DNA of 14,218 bases from a virus (Duplodnaviria > Heunggongvirae > Uroviricota > Caudoviricetes): the IMG/VR virus record IMGVR_UViG_2529292920_000009; one strand, 5' to 3'. Of this stretch, positions 3,086 through 14,218 are shown piece by piece (position 1 is the first letter of the stretch; every line of letters starts with the position of its first letter). The notes under the pieces were generated by a model. That model saw nothing but the letters and a program-made list of their open reading frames with translations, was not told the DNA's origin and ran no database searches. The translations under genes were made by a program, and so were the position numbers.

Positions 3086-3483
3086 ACCGACATACACAAA
3101 TCCGCCAGGTCGTACTGGCACGCCTTCGGGAACAGTGTGGAGACAGCGCCACGTTTTTTGACGGGCTTCCGGCATTTGTTGATGCGCAGGAACTGCCTGC
3201 CGTGTCGGTGTGGCTGAGTGATGCTCAGTACACCGGAAAAATGACGGATGAAGATGACTGGCAGGCTGTTCTGCATATTGCTGTCTTCATCCGGGCACAA
3301 GCACCGGATTCAGAGCTGGATATGTGGATGGAGAGCACCATTTTCCCGGCCCTGAATGATGTACCGGCACTTTCCGGACTCATCGACACCCTGATCCCAC
3401 TCGGTTTTAACTATCAACGTGATAATGAGATGGCCACCTGGGCGATGGCGGAAATCACGTACCAGATCACGTACACGAATTAA
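3070..3483 (+). CDS. U: Tail terminator protein U, lambda gpU-like
   Basis: Product contains ATFFDG, PAVSVWL and a C-terminal ITYxITY region resembling lambda gpU as I recall it. Start is ambiguous: ATG 3070 (GAGG only 2 nt upstream) or ATG 3082 (aligns better with the lambda N-terminus MKHTELR). Overlaps the Z stop at 3083-3085. Confidence 0.8.
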   Translation: MADPMNRHTQIRQVVLARLREQCGDSATFFDGLPAFVDAQELPAVSVWLSDAQYTGKMTDEDDWQAVLHIAVFIRAQAPDSELDMWMESTIFPALNDVPALSGLIDTLIPLGFNYQRDNEMATWAMAEITYQITYTN

Positions 3484-3493
3484 GGAGGTGGTA

Positions 3494-4237
3494 ATGACCA
3501 CACCAAATCCACTGGCAAAAACGAAAGGTGCGGGAACGACGTTCTGGATGTATACCGGCAACGGCGACGCATTTGCGAACCCTTTGTCGGACACTGACTG
3601 GCTGCGTCTTGCGATGGTGAAGGATCTGCAACCTGGCGAAATGACCGCTGATGCAGAAGATGACACTTATCTCGATGATGAAGATGCAGACTGGAAAACG
3701 ACAACCCAGGGGCAGAAATCCGTTGGTGATACTTCGGCGACGCTGGCCTGGCGTCCGGGTGACAGCGGGCAGAAAAAACTGGTTCAGTTGTTCGACTCCG
3801 GTGAAGTCTGCGCGTTTCGTATCAAATATCCCAACGGCACTGTTGATGTTTTCCGTGGCTGGCTGAGCTCACTGGGTAAAACCATTGCCTCAAAAGACGT
3901 GATGACCCGCACAGTGAAAATCAGCGGTGTGGGGCGTCCGTATCTGGCAGAGGAGGGCACTGAAACTGTGGGCGTTACCGGGCTGACGGTGGCACCGGCA
4001 TCTGCCAGTGTAAAAGTGGGAGCAACCACCACGCTGACCTTTACAGTAAAACCTGACGGAGCCAGTGACAAAGCGATCAGTGTGCATTCGACAGATCCAC
4101 AGACTGCCACGGTGACCCTGAACGGGCTTGTGGCCACGGTGAAAGGCGTGAAGCAGGGCAGTGTCAGCATTGTGGGCATGACTTCTGACGGCGATTTTGT
4201 GGCAGTGGCTGCGGTGGCTGTCAGCGCCGCAGGTTAA
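3494..4237 (+). CDS. V: Major tail protein V with C-terminal Ig-like (Big_2-type) domain, lambda gpV-like
   Basis: Strong SD AAGGAGGT at 3482-3489 and ATG at 3494; the ORF-track start at 3419 is upstream and overlaps U. N-terminus MTTPNPLAKTKGAGTTFWMY...NPLSD...DLQPGEMTA...YLDDEDADW matches lambda gpV from memory; the C-terminal ~90 aa is an Ig-like segment. Confidence 0.9.
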   Translation: MTTPNPLAKTKGAGTTFWMYTGNGDAFANPLSDTDWLRLAMVKDLQPGEMTADAEDDTYLDDEDADWKTTTQGQKSVGDTSATLAWRPGDSGQKKLVQLFDSGEVCAFRIKYPNGTVDVFRGWLSSLGKTIASKDVMTRTVKISGVGRPYLAEEGTETVGVTGLTVAPASASVKVGATTTLTFTVKPDGASDKAISVHSTDPQTATVTLNGLVATVKGVKQGSVSIVGMTSDGDFVAVAAVAVSAAG

Positions 4238-4294: not shown

Positions 4295-4684
4295 ATGATG
4301 TTTCTGAAACAGGGCACGTTTAATTATGAAAAGCAGTCCGTGGTGCTCAGTGAGCTGTCCGGGCTGCAGAGAATTGAATATCTGGCGTTTGTTCAGCAGC
4401 GAACGGCAAAGTTTGATGCCGAAGAGGGAGAACTGCCGGAGGCTGAACGACAGATTGCTTTTCTGCGGATGGGGATGGATATCAATGCCTGGCTGGTTTC
4501 CCGCTCACAGTGGAATGCGGATCAGTCTAAGGATGTAGAGACGCTTTGCGCATCCGTTATTACAACATGGTCGTATGATGCCCTGGGTGCGGGGGCGGAG
4601 ATGGTTCTGTCGCTGAGCGGTATGGGGACCATTGATAATGCCGGGGATGATGAGCATGAGGCGCTGACGCCGGAAAAGTCCTGA
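4295..4684 (+). CDS. G: Tail assembly chaperone G, lambda gpG-like
   Basis: Tandem ATG at 4295/4298 with GGTGGAG at 4285-4291; MFLK...VLSELSGLQRIEYLAF resembles the lambda gpG N-terminus (MFLK...TLSELSALQRIEHLA, from memory). Stop TGA at 4682-4684. Confidence 0.85.
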   Translation: MMFLKQGTFNYEKQSVVLSELSGLQRIEYLAFVQQRTAKFDAEEGELPEAERQIAFLRMGMDINAWLVSRSQWNADQSKDVETLCASVITTWSYDALGAGAEMVLSLSGMGTIDNAGDDEHEALTPEKS

Positions 4685-5022
4685 CGCGGGAAATGCAGTT
4701 TGTCATGCGGCTTGCCCGGGAGTTCCGGCGGGCAGACTGGCGGCGGATGCTGTCGGAAATGTCGGCCACTGAGCTTGGTGAGTGGGGCGATTATTTCCGG
4801 ATGCAGAGCTTCAGTGATGTGTGGATGGATGCGCAGTTTGCCTCGCTGAAGGCATTGATCGTGAGAATGGTGTCCGGCAGCAGTGATGCTGCGGTGGCTG
4901 ATTTCAGCCTTTTACCGGAAGAGAACGGGATACCGGAGCGAACGGACGAAGAACTGATGCATCTTGGGGAAGGTATTTCCGGAGGTGTGCGTTATGGACC
5001 AGATAGCCAACCTGGTCATTGA
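4672..5022 (+). CDS. T: T portion of the tail assembly chaperone G-T fusion, expected to be made by -1 programmed frameshift from G
   Basis: The -1 frame relative to G is open from 4660 (upstream TGA at 4657-4659) to TGA at 5020-5022 and overlaps the last codons of G (GAA AAG TCC TGA). This is the conserved lambdoid G/G-T arrangement; the exact slip point is inferred. Confidence 0.7.
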   Translation, partial: GKVLTREMQFVMRLAREFRRADWRRMLSEMSATELGEWGDYFRMQSFSDVWMDAQFASLKALIVRMVSGSSDAAVADFSLLPEENGIPERTDEELMHLGEGISGGVRYGPDSQPGH

Positions 5023-5647
5023 TTTGGGGATTGATGCGGCAGAGTTTAAAAATGAAATCCCCCGTATCAAAAACCTTCTGAATGGTGCAGCCAGCGATGC
5101 AGAACGGTCTTCTGCCCGTATGCAGCGTTTTATGGAGCGTCAGACTCAGGCCGCCCGGCAGACAACGCAGGCGGCTTCTTCGGCTGCAACAGCCGCATCC
5201 GTCCATGCGCAGACGGTGGAGAAGAACGCACAGGCTCATGAACGCATGGCCCGCGAGGTGGAGAAAACCCGCCAGCGCATGGAGGCGCTGAGCCAGAAAA
5301 TGCGCGAGGAACAGGCGCAGGCCATGGCTCTGGCGGAGGCTCAGGATAAAGCGGCTGCTGCGTTTTATCGTCAGATTGACAGTGTGAAACAGGCCAGTGC
5401 GGGGCTGCAGGAATTACAGCGTATTCAGCAGCAGATCCGACAGGCCAGAAACAGTGGCGGGATTGGTCAGCAGGATTATCTGGCGCTGATTTCTGAGGTT
5501 ACGGCGAAAACCCGTGTTCTTACACAGGCTGAGGAAGAGGGTACCCGACAGAAAGTGGCGTTTATCCGTCAGCTTAAAGAGCAGGCAACCCGCCAGAATC
5601 TTTCATCTTCTGAGTTGCTTCGTGCTAAGGCTGCCCAGCTGGGGTAA
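4994..5647 (+). CDS. H: Tape-measure protein H, N-terminal fragment (ends at in-frame TAA)
   Basis: ATG at 4994 with GGAGG at 4980-4984; overlaps the end of T by 29 nt. I preferred this start over the upstream ATG at 4964 because of the SD and the lambda-like N-terminus. Confidence 0.75.
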   Translation: MDQIANLVIDLGIDAAEFKNEIPRIKNLLNGAASDAERSSARMQRFMERQTQAARQTTQAASSAATAASVHAQTVEKNAQAHERMAREVEKTRQRMEALSQKMREEQAQAMALAEAQDKAAAAFYRQIDSVKQASAGLQELQRIQQQIRQARNSGGIGQQDYLALISEVTAKTRVLTQAEEEGTRQKVAFIRQLKEQATRQNLSSSELLRAKAAQLG

Positions 5648-5650
5648 GCA

Positions 5651-6673
5651 GTGCTGCAGAAGTGTATATCCGCAAAAATGGAGCAGGCAGGAAAAGCCAC
5701 GCATTCGCTGGGTCTGAAAAGTGCAGCGGCCCGCCAGGAGATAGGCGTTCTGATAGGTGAACTGGCCCGCGGCAATTTAGGGGCGCTGAGGGGATCCGGG
5801 ATAACGCTGGCTAACCGTGCCGGATGGATAGACACACTGATGTCACCGAAAGGCATGATGCTGGGCGGGGTTATTGGCGGTATTGCCGCAGCTGTCTATG
5901 GTCTGGGTAAAGCCTGGTATGACGGTCAGAAGGAGGGGGAAGAATTTAACCGCCAGCTGTCGCTGACGGGGCATTATGCCGGAGTCACTGCCGGGCAGCT
6001 GTGGACGCTCAGTCGTGCTATTTCCGGGAATGGTATCACGCAACATGCTGCAGCCGGTGCGCTGGCTCAGGTGGTGGGGAGTGGTGCATTTCGTGGAAAC
6101 GATATCGGTATGGTGGCGAGAGCTGCCGCACAGATGGAGCGATCGGTTGGCCAGTCGGTCAGCGATACCATAAGTCAGTTTAAGCGGCTGAAGGATGATC
6201 CTGTAAATGCCGCGAAGGCTCTGGACAATGAGCTGCATTTTCTTACTGCCACTCAGCTTGAGCAGATACGCGTCCTTGGGGAACAGGGGCGGTCCAGTGA
6301 TGCGGCACGGATAGCCATGTCTGCACTGGCAGAGGAAACCGGTCGGCGTACTGCGGATATTGATAATAACCTCAATGCGCTGGGCAGTACGCTGAAGTAT
6401 CTGTCTGATTTATGGAGTCGTTTCTGGGATGCGGCCATGAATATTGGTCGTGAAGACTCGCTGGATGAACAGATTTCCGCTTTACAGGAGAAAGTGTCGC
6501 GGGCGAAAAGACTCCCCTGGACGGCATCATCCTCTCAGGTTGAGTACGATCAGCAGCGTCTTAACGAGCTTCAGGAAAAAAACGCCAGAAGGATTTGCAG
6601 GATGCAAAAGAGCAGGCAGAGCGGAATTATCAGGAGCAACAGAAACGCCGTAATGCTGAAAATGCTGCACTGA
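5651..6673 (+). CDS. H: Tape-measure protein H, middle fragment (same frame as the N-terminal fragment)
   Basis: Reading frame resumes one codon after the TAA (GTG at 5651); it contains a hydrophobic Gly-rich segment (GMMLGGVIGGIAAAVYGLG) typical of tape-measure proteins; the frame is lost at the A7 tract near 6576-6582. Confidence 0.7.
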   Translation: MLQKCISAKMEQAGKATHSLGLKSAAARQEIGVLIGELARGNLGALRGSGITLANRAGWIDTLMSPKGMMLGGVIGGIAAAVYGLGKAWYDGQKEGEEFNRQLSLTGHYAGVTAGQLWTLSRAISGNGITQHAAAGALAQVVGSGAFRGNDIGMVARAAAQMERSVGQSVSDTISQFKRLKDDPVNAAKALDNELHFLTATQLEQIRVLGEQGRSSDAARIAMSALAEETGRRTADIDNNLNALGSTLKYLSDLWSRFWDAAMNIGREDSLDEQISALQEKVSRAKRLPWTASSSQVEYDQQRLNELQEKNARRICRMQKSRQSGIIRSNRNAVMLKMLH

Positions 6674-8049
6674 ACCGGATGAATGAAACGGAAGCAGCAC
6701 GACATCAGCGTGAAATTGCGCGTATTAATGCCATGCAGTACGCCGATCAGACTGTCAGGGATGCGGCGATACAACGTGAAAATGAACGTTACGAGAAAGC
6801 CCTGGCATCCGGTAAGAAAAAAACACGCGAAACCCGTAATGATGAGGCCACCCGGTTATTGCTGCAGTACAGTCAGCAACAGGCACAGGTGGAAGGACAG
6901 ATTGCTGCTGCCAGACAGTCAGCAGGCATTGCCACGGAAAGGATGACAGAAGCGCATAAACAGCTTCTGGCTCTGCAGCAGCGCATCAGCGACCTGGACG
7001 GGAAAAAACTGACGGCAGATGAAAAGAGTGTGCTGGCCCGTAAAGATGAACTGATTCTGGCACTGACGCTGCTGGATGTAAAACAGCAGGAGCTTCAGAA
7101 ACAGACGGCACTCAACGAGCTGAAGAAAAAAACAATTCAGCTGACCAGTCAACTGGCTGAAGAAGAGCGTGCTCAGCGTCAACAACATAATCTGGATATC
7201 GCCACGGTGGGTATGGGTGATCAGCAGCGGCAGCGATATCAGGTACAACTGAGTCTTCGTCAGAAATACCAGCAACAGCTGGAGCAGTTGAGGCGGGATA
7301 GTGAGCAGAAAGGGACATATAACACGGATGACTACAGAAAGGCCGAGCAGGCGCTGACGGAGAGCCTGAACCGACAACTGAATGAGAATCGCCGTTACTG
7401 GCAACAGCTTGAAATTGCTCAGGGTAACTGGAAAAACGGAGTCCTGCGTGCACTCCAGAATGTCACTGAGAATGCGGATAACACAGCCTGGACAGTGGAA
7501 CAGTTGTTCACGTCTGCGTTCAGTAGCATGAGTGACTGGCTGGCGACATTCTGTACTACAGGCAAACTCAATTTCAAATCTTTTACTTCTTCTGTGCTGT
7601 CAGATATGTCCAGAATCATGGCTCAGATAGCTTTAATGAAAGCGGTAAAAGGCATTGCTTCCGCGCTGCCTTTTGATTTTGTAGCCAATGCTGATGGCGG
7701 TGTTTATCAGTCGGCTGATTTGAGTCGCTACAGTGGCACGGTGGTTAACCGTCCGACGTTTTTTGCTTTTGCAAAAGGCGCGGGTGTGATGGGGGAAGCG
7801 GGACCTGAAGCCATTCTGCCATTGCGTCGTGGTGCTGACGGTAAGCTGGGGGGTGTGGCGGATATTGGGGGTTCAGGTATGGCGATGTTTTCCCCGCAGT
7901 ACAACATCGAGATCAATAACGATGGCACGAACGGGCAGATAGGTCCGGCTGCCCTGAAGGCGGTTTATGACCTCGGGAAAAAAGCGGCAGCGGACTTTAT
8001 GCAACAGCAGGCCCGTGATGGTGGTCGGTTAAGTGGAGCATATCGGTAA
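6595..8049 (+). CDS. H: Tape-measure protein H, C-terminal fragment (-1 frame)
   Basis: This frame is open from 6565; the ORF-track start at 6595 is a TTG. Gln/Glu/Arg-rich coiled-coil-like sequence ending in the conserved gpH C-terminus; stop TAA at 8047-8049 overlaps the M start (TAATG). Confidence 0.75.
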   Translation: MQDAKEQAERNYQEQQKRRNAENAALNRMNETEAARHQREIARINAMQYADQTVRDAAIQRENERYEKALASGKKKTRETRNDEATRLLLQYSQQQAQVEGQIAAARQSAGIATERMTEAHKQLLALQQRISDLDGKKLTADEKSVLARKDELILALTLLDVKQQELQKQTALNELKKKTIQLTSQLAEEERAQRQQHNLDIATVGMGDQQRQRYQVQLSLRQKYQQQLEQLRRDSEQKGTYNTDDYRKAEQALTESLNRQLNENRRYWQQLEIAQGNWKNGVLRALQNVTENADNTAWTVEQLFTSAFSSMSDWLATFCTTGKLNFKSFTSSVLSDMSRIMAQIALMKAVKGIASALPFDFVANADGGVYQSADLSRYSGTVVNRPTFFAFAKGAGVMGEAGPEAILPLRRGADGKLGGVADIGGSGMAMFSPQYNIEINNDGTNGQIGPAALKAVYDLGKKAAADFMQQQARDGGRLSGAYR

Positions 8050-10439: not shown

Positions 10440-12407
10440 ATGGGCAAAGGAAGCAGTAAGGGGCATACCCCGCGCGAAGCGAAGGACAACCTGAAGTCCA
10501 CGCAACTGCTGAGTGTGATTGATGCCATCAGCGAAGGGCCGATTGAAGGTCCGGTGGATGGATTAAAAAGCGTGCTGCTGAACAGTACGCCGGTGCTGGA
10601 CAGTGAAGGTAATACCAACATCTCCGGTGTCACGGTGGTGTTCCGGGCCGGTGAGCAGGAGCAGACACCGCCGGAGGGATTTGAATCCTCCGGCTCTGAG
10701 ACGGTGCTGGGTACGGAAGTGAAATACGACACGCCGATCACCCGCACCATCACGTCGGCAAACATCGATCGTCTGCGCTTTACTTTCGGTGTGCAGGCAC
10801 TGGTGGAAACCACCTCTAAGGGGGACCGGAATCCGTCGGAAGTCCGCCTGCTGGTTCAGATACAGCGTAACGGTGGCTGGGTGACGGAAAAAGACATCAC
10901 CATTAAAGGCAAAACCACCTCACAGTATCTGGCATCGGTGGTGGTGGGTAACCTGCCGCCGCGCCCGTTCAATATCCGGATGCGCAGGATGACGCCGGAC
11001 AGCACCACAGACCAGCTGCAGAACAAAACGCTCTGGTCGTCATACACCGAAATCATCGATGTGAAACAGTGCTACCCGAACACGGCACTGGTCGGCGTAC
11101 AGGTGGATTCGGAGCAGTTCGGCAGCCAGCAGGTGAGCCGTAATTATCATCTGCGCGGGCGTATTCTGCAGGTGCCGTCGAACTATAACCCGCAGACGCG
11201 GCAATACAGCGGTATCTGGGACGGAACGTTTAAGCCAGCATACAGCAATAACATGGCCTGGTGTCTGTGGGATATGCTGACCCATCCACGCTACGGCATG
11301 GGGAAACGTCTTGGTGCGGCGGATGTGGACAAATGGGCGCTGTATGTCATCGGCCAGTACTGCGACCAGTCAGTGCCGGACGGCTTTGGCGGCACGGAGC
11401 CGCGCATCACCTGTAATGCGTACCTGACCACACAGCGCAAGGCGTGGGATGTGCTCAGTGATTTCTGCTCGGCGATGCGCTGTATGCCGGTATGGAACGG
11501 GCAGACGCTGACGTTCGTGCAGGACCGACCGTCGGATAAGGTGTGGACCTATAACCGCAGTAATGTGGTGATGCCGGATGATGGCGCGCCGTTCCGCTAC
11601 AGCTTCAGCGCCCTGAAAGACCGCCATAATGCCGTTGAGGTGAACTGGATTGACCCGAACAACGGCTGGGAGACGGCGACAGAGCTTGTGGAGGATACGC
11701 AGGCCATTGCCCGTTACGGTCGTAACGTCACGAAGATGGATGCTTTTGGCTGTACCAGCCGGGGGCAGGCACACCGCGCCGGGCTGTGGCTGATTAAAAC
11801 AGAACTGCTGGAAACGCAGACCGTGGACTTCAGCGTGGGCGCAGAAGGGCTTCGCCATGTGCCGGGCGATGTCATTGAAATCTGTGATGATGACTATGCC
11901 GGTATCAGCATCGGCGGGCGCGTGCTGGCGGTAAACAGCCAGACCCGGACGCTGACGCTCGACCGTGAAATCACGCTGCCATCCTCCGGTACCACGCTGA
12001 TAAGCCAGGTTGACGGAAGTGGCAATCCGGTCAGCGTGGAGGTTCAGTCCGTCACCGACGGCGTGAAGGTAAAAGTGAGCCGTGTTCCTGACGGTGTTGC
12101 CGGATACAGCGTATGGGGGCTGAAGCTGCCGACGCTGCGCCAGCGACTGTTCCGCTGCGTGAGTATCCGTGAGAACGACGACGGCACGTATGCCATCACC
12201 GCCGTGCAGCATGTGCCGGAAAAAGAGGCCATCGTGGATAACGGGGCGCACTTTGACGGCGAACAGAGTGGCACGGTGAACGGTGTCACGCCGCCAGCAG
12301 TGCAGCACCTGACCGCAGAAGTCACCGCAGACAGCGGGGAATACCAGGTGCTGGCGCGCTGGGACACGCCGAAGGTGGTGAAGGGGGGAGCTTTATGCTT
12401 CGCCTGA
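10440..12407 (+). CDS. J: Host-specificity protein J, N-terminal fragment
   Basis: ATG at 10440 with GGAG at 10428-10431; [54 protein letters not shown]... matches lambda J; the frame ends 7 codons after the G6 tract. Confidence 0.85.
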
Positions 12408-13810
12408 CCGTGGCAGCGGATGACGGCAGTGAGCGGCTGGTCAGCACGGCCCGGACGACGGAAACCACATACCGCTTCAGGCAGCTGGCGTTGGGGCGTT
12501 ACACGCTGACAGTCCGGGCGGTAAATGCCCGGGGACAGCAGGGCGATCCGGCGTCGGTATCGTTCCGGATTGCCGCACCGGCAGCGCCGTCACAGATTGA
12601 GCTGACGCCGGGCTATTTTCAGATCACCGCCACGCCGCATCTTGCGGTTTATGATCCGACGGTACAGTTTGAGTTCTGGTTTTCGGAAAAGCGGATTACC
12701 GATATCAGGCAGGTTGAAACCAGCGCGCGCTATCTTGGCACGGGGATGTACTGGATAGCCGCCAGTATCAATATCAAACCGGGCCATGATTATTACTTTT
12801 ATATCCGCAGTGTGAACACCGTTGGCAAATCGGCATTCGTGGAGGCTGTCGGTCAGGCGAGCGATGATGCGGAAGGTTACCTGGATTTTTTCAAAGGCCA
12901 GATAACCGAATCCCATCTCGGCAAGGAGCTGCTGGAAAAAGTCGAGCTGACGGAGGATAACGCCAGCAAACTGGAGGAGTTTTCGAAAGAGTGGCAGGAC
13001 GCTAACGATAAGTGGAATGCCATGTGGGGCGTCAAAATTGAGCAGACCAAAGACGGCAAACATTATGTCGCGGGTATTGGCCTCAGCATGGAGGACACGG
13101 AAGAAGGCAAGCTGAGCCAGTTTCTGGTTGCCGCTAACCGTATCGCGTTTATTGACCCGGCAAACGGGAATGAAACGCCGATGTTTGTGGCGCAGGGCAA
13201 TCAGATATTTATGAACGACGTGTTCCTGAAGCGCCTGACGGCCCCGACCATTACCAGTGGTGGAAATCCACCGGCATTTTCCCTGACATCAGACGGAAAG
13301 CTGACCGCTAAAAATGCGGATATCAGTGGTAGAGTGAATGCGAACGCCGGGACGCTCAACAATGTCACGGTAAATGAAAACTGTACGATTAAGGGCATGC
13401 TGGAGGCGACTCAGGTCAGAGGTGACTTCGTTAAAGCTGTATCCAAATCATTTCCGAAACAGGCTGGTACGTGGGGTAACACGGAAACACCAAACGGGAC
13501 GGTTACAGTCACCATCAGCGATGATCATAACTTTGACCGTCAAATCATTATTCCGCCCATTATCTTTAACGGAATAGCGTATAGCTATCCGGGAAGTGGT
13601 AATAACCCGGGAGGTACAAGTTACACGGGTTATGGTTTCGAAGTTCGCAAAAACGGTGTATTAATCGCATCCAGAGAAACTAAAGGGGCCATTCCCGGTA
13701 GTTACAGTGCGGTTATTGATATGCCGAGTGGCAGGGGAGCGTCACTCTGGAGTTTAAGGTTTTCCATAAAGGCAATCAGTGGGCAGGTAATATCACCGAC
13801 TGTACGGTGA
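12395..13810 (+). CDS. J: Host-specificity protein J, C-terminal fragment (-1 frame relative to the N-terminal fragment)
   Basis: Continues the J sequence ([28 protein letters not shown]..., fibronectin-III-like region); the last ~150 aa look diverged from lambda and are more AT-rich; the frame ends at TGA 13808-13810 after the G4 tract. Confidence 0.8.
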
Positions 13811-13872
13811 TTGTGACCAAAAAAGCCGCTTCCGGCATCAGTATTCGTTGAAATTGTTATAACCCATATAAG

Positions 13873-13899
13873 GGCACCAAAAATGGTGCCTATTTTATT
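13873..13899 (+). terminator. Rho-independent terminator downstream of J
   Basis: Seen directly: 7-bp stem GGCACCA (13873-13879), loop AAAA, TGGTGCC (13884-13890), then TATTTTATT (13891-13899). Confidence 0.6.
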
Positions 13900-14013
13900 G
13901 CAGAAAAGCGAGAGGTAATTATGCGTAAAGGTAACCGGCTCATTTAAACCGTCTGGTCTGTTTCCTCCGGCTCTACAAAAATAATGTCCATCATTTTTAA
14001 TGGACACTATCGT

Positions 14014-14218
14014 ATGAAACACCGGACCTGGATCACTGAAGCTTTACGTCTTCACTTTGAAGAACATTTACCCCGGGTTGTGGCCGGGCGTCGCCTGGGT
14101 GTACCAAAATCAACAGTTTGTAGTATGTTCGTGCGCTTTCGGAGAGCTGGCCTTTCGTGGCCTTTGCCCGCAGGCATGTCGGAGCAGGAACTTGATGCCT
14201 GCCTTTACGGACAATTTT
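14014..14218 (+). CDS. HTH-domain ORF, 3' end beyond the window; possibly the N-terminus of an IS transposase (family not determined)
   Basis: ATG at 14014 opens a frame that runs to the window edge (68 codons). It encodes a helix-turn-helix-like segment (GRRLGVPKSTVCSMFVRFRRAGL) of the kind seen at transposase N-termini. There is no clear SD, and a 7-bp inverted repeat lies immediately upstream (13985-14006). Confidence 0.4.
   Translation, partial: MKHRTWITEALRLHFEEHLPRVVAGRRLGVPKSTVCSMFVRFRRAGLSWPLPAGMSEQELDACLYGQF

Follow-up and report, generated by a model that had tools for sequence, protein, structure and literature searches.

The 3' end of gene J in the stretch of phage DNA analysed here (14,218 bases, hereafter the window) is a diverged, AT-rich module that, with a probability of about 0.88, represents the phage 434 (h434) allelic form of the J receptor-binding end, whose intact protein would bind OmpC and not LamB. 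That lambda and 434 can exchange their J C-termini, and that the receptor changes from LamB to OmpC as a result, has belonged to textbook phage genetics since the 1970s. The module belongs to this long-known 434-type (OmpC) host-range cassette and, therefore, nothing is new in its identity; the exchange between lambda and 434 J ends being already known, the observation holds but is an ordinary one. What is new and most useful is the presence of two frameshifts in J and three in the tape-measure gene H, which had previously gone unnoticed.

Source contig, boundary and base composition of the J end

The window is the complete draft contig AIEZ01000007.1 (assembly GCA_000249135.2), which belongs to the 2012 release of the E. 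coli DECA collection. On it lie the late genes for structural proteins of a lambda-like prophage (cdtI/mEp460 type), in the order ClpP-protease/major-capsid fusion, decoration protein and tail genes Z, U, V, G, T, H, M, L, K, I and J, so that J lies 3' of the tape-measure gene H and of M, L, K and I, and 5' of lom. The best complete relatives are 96.9–98.6% identical over the aligning part, which covers 96–100% of the contig up to base 13930. The start of the contig falls inside the gene for the fusion of ClpP-like prohead protease and major capsid protein (1–1817), and its bases 1–6 match no relative, which suggests a contig-end artefact. The lambda G–T slippery heptamer GGGAAAG is absent from the window near 4600–4700. 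Moreover, a minus-strand ORF of 106 aa (13702–14022), antisense to J and spanning the junction between J and the insertion sequence, was rejected as spurious. The features of the J end and of the region downstream are collected in Table 1.

Table 1. Features of gene J and of the downstream region (positions in the window)
Feature	Coordinates	Strand	Basis
First reading-frame fragment of J (655 aa): hub, FNIII-A domains and start of the first Ig_J domain	10440–12407	+	ORF list; PF24801, PF13550, PF24421 (profile positions 1–40 of 104)
J frameshift site 1, base missing after 12385	12380–12391	+	Alignments
Second reading-frame fragment of J (471 aa as ORF)	12395–13810	+	PF24421, PF24489, PF09327, PF12421
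Diverged AT-rich module, 434-type receptor-binding end of J: last turn of the central straight fibre and Ig-like receptor-binding domain	13364–13851	+	Alignment, GC, Pfam (PF12421 from about 13439), PDB matches
J frameshift site 2, base missing after 13737	13732–13743	+	Alignments, Pfam
Last 37 codons of J and stop, third frame (TGA 13849–13851)	13738–13851	+	Direct reading
Terminator-like hairpin GGGCACC-AAAAAT-GGTGCCT (13872–13891) and T-rich run	13872–13901	+	Sequence
lom, first 10 bases ATGCGTAAAG	13921–13930	+	Homology to all related prophages ends here
Left end of IS66-family element (ISCro1-like), starting GTAACCGG	13931–14218	+	Junction match

The J region was aligned with the J genes of lambda, phage 434 and PhiR49_1 using MAFFT, and DNA identity was calculated per 150-nt interval. 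Identity to lambda J is 0.91–0.99 across most of the gene, 0.79 at 13289–13438, and only 0.41–0.56 from 13364 to the end of J, where the sequences are essentially unalignable. Dense mismatches begin at about 13359–13366 and, over a distance of some 100 nt, identity decreases from ~0.93 to ~0.5, which gives the module a sharp left boundary at about 13360 (residue ~975). At the protein level, J residues 1–975 are 94–99% identical to lambda J (97–99% for the first reading-frame fragment), whereas residues 976–1137 are identical at 64 of 168 positions (38%) to lambda J residues ~976–1132 and do not form a lambda-type LamB-binding domain.

The base composition changes at the same place. The GC content of the module is 0.469, compared with 0.546 in the equivalent stretch of lambda, and all 488-nt intervals upstream in the contig lie above it (mean 0.552, sd 0.034, minimum 0.477). 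Along J, GC at third codon positions (GC3) declines from 0.72 to 0.63 and then to 0.47, the latter step coinciding with the identity break. An earlier drop in GC at about 12600 (0.60 to 0.52) is also found in lambda and, therefore, is uninformative on a swap. The module of phage 434 has a similarly low GC content (0.476), while values of 0.55–0.59 are found in the downstream lom and stf genes of related 434-type phages and 0.52 in J upstream of the module, which is thus a local AT-rich island. This lower GC content (0.47) marks a history of the module separate from that of the rest of J.

Other parts of J also show irregularities. Just after the first frameshift, at 12315–12613, identity dips to 0.88–0.93 against lambda, 434 and PhiR49_1 alike (0.88–0.91 against lambda); this patch holds several amino-acid changes (lambda reads RFTQLALGNYRL there) and probably represents one more small mosaic segment, located in the first Ig-like domain of J. 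Phage cdtI, otherwise the closest relative over the whole contig (98.6%), has about 84 net extra bases in J relative to window positions 12931–12997 (blocks of 36, 27 and 26, minus 5) and carries unrelated sequence in the helical-shaft region, a difference that constitutes a further mosaic junction inside J.

Allele identity and fold

Over the module, 152 of the 162 residues are identical to phage 434 J, with no indels (93.9% identity by tblastn; DNA identity 0.88–0.95), and 160 of 162 to PhiR49_1 (DNA 0.98–0.99), the next allele class lying below 60%. The module is likewise 98–99% identical to those of PhiR49_1, Perceval, Ayreon and the O157 Stx1a/Stx2c phages (98.8% over the domain in the latter), and the whole J gene matches 434 and 'Lambda h434 imm21' at about 95% at the DNA level. 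In the alignment, all insertions and deletions relative to lambda J within 13467–13789 are common to the window, 434 and PhiR49_1, including +6 nt at 13467–13472, +20 nt at 13590–13609 and +12 nt at 13701–13712. The 10 of 162 residues that differ from 434 J fall mostly in variable loops and include KQAG versus KKVG, SY versus DN, TS versus TR, and GRG versus GGG.

A previous interpretation made from the letters of the DNA (the sequence-only reading) had proposed that most of J resembles lambda J, that its C-terminal end departs from it and becomes AT-richer from position 13200 onward, and that a receptor-binding module had been swapped. The first two points agree with the identities given above. 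The departure was also correctly placed at the motif quoted there; however, this motif coincides with the break and, therefore, the boundary lies near 13330–13365 and not at 13200, some 150 nt further to the left. In line with that reading, the GC profile is not flat, and the AT-rich stretch extends over 13364–13851 but does not include 13200–13360, which is no AT-richer than the preceding 600 nt. Finally, the comparison with characterised J proteins (94% identity of the C-terminus to 434 and 38.7% to lambda, high identity to lambda being absent) endorses the swap, together with the sharp boundary, the indels shared with 434, the compositional island and the bimodal distribution of identities described below.

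Six Pfam families match the two J ORF fragments in order, with E values of 1e-13 to 1e-43, forming the series FNIII-A_GpJ, Phage-tail_3, Ig_J, Ig_J_second, Phage_Tail_Tip and Ig_GpJ_C that is characteristic of J. The match to PF12421, 'tip attachment protein J, C-terminal receptor binding domain', spans 13439–13737 (E = 8.8e-19) and ends at profile position 93 of 135, where it is cut by the second frameshift. The best sequence match of the domain in the PDB is A8 gpJ (E = 6e-49, whole domain), and lambda J is matched by phmmer over the full domain (E ~1e-40). The structure was modelled with AlphaFold2 on protein P0001, which belongs to a cluster of 330 member sequences and whose receptor-binding domain is, by eye, identical to the repaired domain of the window. 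The model is all-beta, with pLDDT values of 75–94 over the receptor-binding domain; it represents a monomer of moderate overall pLDDT (73), whereas the real unit is a trimer. Its top Foldseek matches are the central fibre of lambda (closed in 8xck, LamB-bound in 8xcj) and A8 gpJ (closed in 9wca, OmpC-bound in 9wcb), with E = 7e-19 for the receptor-binding domain of lambda J. Thus, the structural comparison that had been suggested along with the swap predicts the same fold as in lambda.

In lambda J, the Ig-like domain bears four bottom loops, L1–L4, that insert into the porin, and the spreading of these loops twists the fibre and opens the tail (PMC11101478). Among the alleles compared here, the variable columns of the alignment are concentrated in four loops predicted between strands (P0001 residues 83–95, 120–139, 153–165 and 184–195), which, by analogy and as placed in the model, would fit the receptor-contacting loops L1–L4 of lambda J.

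Reading frames of J and H and the element downstream

J had been taken in the sequence-only reading as a continuous ORF at 10440–13851, with the diverged region ending at 13810. As assembled, J is not a single ORF of ~1130–1140 codons but occupies three reading frames, and position 13810 is a premature stop created by the second frameshift, not the end of the gene. At the first site, the window reads AAGGGGGGAGC, mEp460 reads AAGGGGGTGAGC, and lambda, 434 and cdtI read AAGGGCGTGAGC; the premature TGA that ends the first fragment results from this frameshift. The second fragment extends from the Ig-like domains through the tail-tip fibre into the receptor-binding domain, of which it includes the first two thirds, and its last 24 codons (ASLWSL...PTVR), located after the second frameshift, are out of frame. 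At the second site, the window reads GGCAGGGGAGCGTC, and PhiR49_1, cdtI and mEp460 read GGCAGGGGAAGCGTC. In the repaired alignment, the last 37 codons of J are identical to the C-termini of 434 and PhiR49_1. Lambda, 434, PhiR49_1, cdtI and mEp460 all have the base that is missing at either site; over J, the window is 2 bases shorter than the phage records, and the top E. coli genome matches all span 473 nt, compared with the 472-nt query taken from the module. Two inserted bases restore a J ORF of 1137 aa. Since J is frameshifted twice, the sequence as assembled would not yield a J protein with this receptor-binding domain.

The tape-measure gene H (~4994–8049) is also divided, in this case into three ORFs, through one-base indels at positions 5640, 5674 and 6575, all at homopolymer runs (G5 to G4, A4 to A5 and A8 to A7). 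The first two are 34 nt apart and their frame shifts cancel each other, leaving a stop codon in between, and repair of the three indels generates one open frame of ~1030 codons from stop to stop. Thus, the five private indels in J and H are all single-base changes at homopolymer runs; after repair, both genes read through, and all the other genes of the contig are open. Furthermore, once J is repaired, 14 of its 15 private substitutions prove synonymous, among them all 4 that lie downstream of the first frameshift, and, therefore, purifying selection has acted on J until essentially the present day. Because all five breaks lie at homopolymers in a draft of 2012 and the private substitutions are synonymous, the breaks are either artefacts or very recent, and it is somewhat more probable that they are sequencing or assembly errors than very recent events. 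The DECA genome project reportedly used pyrosequencing, a method prone to homopolymer miscalls.

The alternative that comes closest in weight takes the frameshifts to be real: J would then be a pseudogene of a decaying prophage invaded by an insertion sequence, and the module would no longer have a receptor function in this strain. It is a minority reading, although one to be taken seriously. The division of J into three frames, the three further one-base indels that break H and the IS66-family element inside lom would all be expected of a decaying prophage. In addition, the repaired 1137-aa J, searched with either V or G at its one ambiguous residue, is found in neither version among 15 billion catalogued proteins. 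However, the five indels are single-base changes at homopolymers in a 2012 draft contig and none of them occurs in finished relatives; the repaired H and J read through beside genes that remain open; and 14 synonymous substitutions out of 15 are unlike what a long-dead gene would accumulate. Positions 6575 and 12385, moreover, vary among related prophages, which would fit a consensus collapsed from several prophage copies. An exact-match scan of representative genomes for the allele at the first frameshift site did not find it. A variant of this explanation, in which real frameshifts mark an inactivation of J selected in a domesticated prophage, is less likely than the tuning to OmpC variants considered below. 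The artefact explanation being the more probable one, J and H are better treated in the annotation of this contig as frameshifted genes, probably by sequencing error, and not as separate genes.

Downstream of J, mEp460 has a rho-independent terminator annotated at the place matching 13872–13901, and lom is interrupted after its first bases by the IS66-family element, whose accessory gene tnpA starts at 14014 and inside which the contig ends. Over the whole junction with this element, the window matches two complete E. coli genomes (AUSMDU00014361 and B1_2) at 99.7%, with tnpA annotated there, and the full element is located between J and lom in locus L004 (15001–17700). In these two genomes, the identical junction adjoins a different J gene, which suggests that the insertion in lom is old and has been moved between prophages by recombination.

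Receptor, exchange and known J proteins

Lambda whose J is replaced by that of 434 uses OmpC, the 434 receptor, in place of LamB (PMC3509688; PMC11101478; Hantke 1978, as cited by a later paper), and OmpC use conferred by 434 J is also given in PMC12502783. Since the cassette of the window is of the 434 type, with 94% identity to 434 J, its intact protein would bind OmpC rather than LamB. The proposal that the phage recognises a receptor different from that of lambda gains support by homology from the 152 of 162 residues shared with an OmpC-using J. As a statement about this phage, it would apply if the two gaps in J are assembly errors, or to an intact ancestor; it would not apply to the sequence as assembled.

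According to the mechanism proposed here, the ~975 conserved residues (hub, FNIII domains, helical shaft and beta-prism fibre), nearly identical in lambda, 434 and this prophage, would build the tail-tip hub and fibre, followed by an Ig-like domain of ~135 residues whose loops would dock into a trimeric outer-membrane porin. Homologous recombination in the conserved fibre, just upstream of this domain, would allow lambdoid phages to swap it as a cassette. The 434-type domain would dock as a trimer on trimeric OmpC, and binding would trigger the same fibre rearrangement and tail opening as described for lambda. This loop-mediated docking on OmpC is proposed by analogy with the structures of lambda J with LamB and of A8 gpJ with OmpC.

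Variation within the 434 type may be of functional relevance. Specificity differs among OmpC variants in other gpJ chimeras and, since the ten differences from 434 J are mostly found in variable loops, specificity towards OmpC variants could differ as well. It has been considered that this sub-allele, set apart from 434 and PhiR49_1 by its receptor-contact loops (KQAG, SYPGSG and GGTSY), is tuned to a particular OmpC variant of its EPEC/EHEC-type hosts, which is speculative and rather unlikely. If true, micro-variation of the loops among 434-type cassettes would follow OmpC polymorphism and determine host range at the strain level. Loop differences within the 434 type could also guide the choice of J chimeras for strain-targeted delivery particles.

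Less probable still is that the module, despite being 434-like, uses a receptor other than OmpC, for instance OmpF or another porin, through its differing contact loops. The concentration of the ten substitutions in variable loops would allow it, as would the observation that, in related phages, one J mutation is enough to add a porin or to change the one used. Nevertheless, the module is 94% identical to 434 J with no indels, and several independent E. coli J types far more divergent than that of the window still use OmpC, namely phi330 (PMC12502783), A8 and 1A2. Nothing usable on receptor tests was found in the literature for mEp460 or for PhiR49_1 (host ECOR13), nor on phi458 in PMC12502783. 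OmpC is thus retained as the probable receptor of the intact protein.

Regarding its distribution, identity to the domain across phage records is bimodal, with 74 records at 90–99%, 169 below 60% (lambda at 38.7%) and none in between, and a large protein search recovers the same two identity bands, confined to Escherichia and Shigella. This bimodality indicates discrete exchangeable alleles and not gradual divergence. The same module (92–99% identity) is joined to otherwise differing J genes and phage backbones. DNA similar to 13380–13851 is present in 2112 of 5426 complete E. coli genomes (39%), while lambda's own J ending (query: positions 3440–3904 of the lambda locus L001) occurs in 98 of the 5426, all copies being at least 99% identical and the five listed being laboratory strains. 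Therefore, the 434 type is the commonest J ending among sequenced E. coli and that of lambda is the exception. That the J C-terminus instead diverged in place from the lambda type, by accelerated point mutation under host-range selection and with no cassette involved, is highly improbable: the two domains are homologous over their full length, with 38% identity and conserved core motifs DDHxFDRQ and DMPxGxG, and few point mutations suffice for a receptor change in lambda and phage 21 J, but the abrupt loss of identity within some 100 nt, the fall of GC3 from 0.63 to 0.47 at the same place, the recurrence of the module on different J genes and backbones, and the lack of intermediates at 60–90% identity all argue against it.

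A scan of representative genomes with the back-translated receptor-binding domain retrieved two Escherichia loci and one 1.35-kb contig. The latter, JAGZNZ010000056.1 (1350 bases), belongs to a Collinsella metagenome-assembled genome and carries a J receptor-binding end 97% identical to that of the window; it is probably a mis-binned E. coli prophage fragment. Similarly, MW057783.1 (48,361 bases), deposited as 'Campylobacter phage CJLB-4', has a J ending with the identity value of lambda at nearly the same coordinates, and is apparently lambda itself, not a Campylobacter phage.

Among known systems, the J gene of phage 434 (OL657226/OL657227; 'Lambda h434 imm21', OM418627) is collinear with window J over the whole gene and lies at the same place in the genome, following H-M-L-K-I and preceding a terminator and lom; the window differs from it in the ten substitutions, in the two frameshifts of J and in lom being broken by the IS66-family element. 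The J genes of PhiR49_1, Perceval, Ayreon, the O157 Stx1a/Stx2c phages, E. coli 55989 (gpJ) and many further genomes carry the module at 98–99% identity and are intact, unlike that of the window, and their upstream part of J is a different mosaic, with 95–97% identity. Lambda J, whose receptor-binding domain is represented by PDB entries 8xcj, 8xck and 8iyk, shares the family (PF12421) and fold of the window domain, but is only 38% identical over the last 162 residues, with five indels that include a 6-residue insertion (PGSGNN region) and a 6-residue deletion (PPYTFA), and its receptor is LamB, whereas the window module is assigned to OmpC by homology. A8 gpJ, an engineered lambda chimera with a natural prophage J ending (PDB 9wca, and 9wcb with OmpC of EDL933), has the same fold as the window domain and represents a solved J-type domain docked on OmpC; with ~50% identity in the domain, it is a distinct allele and the window module is not of the A8 type.
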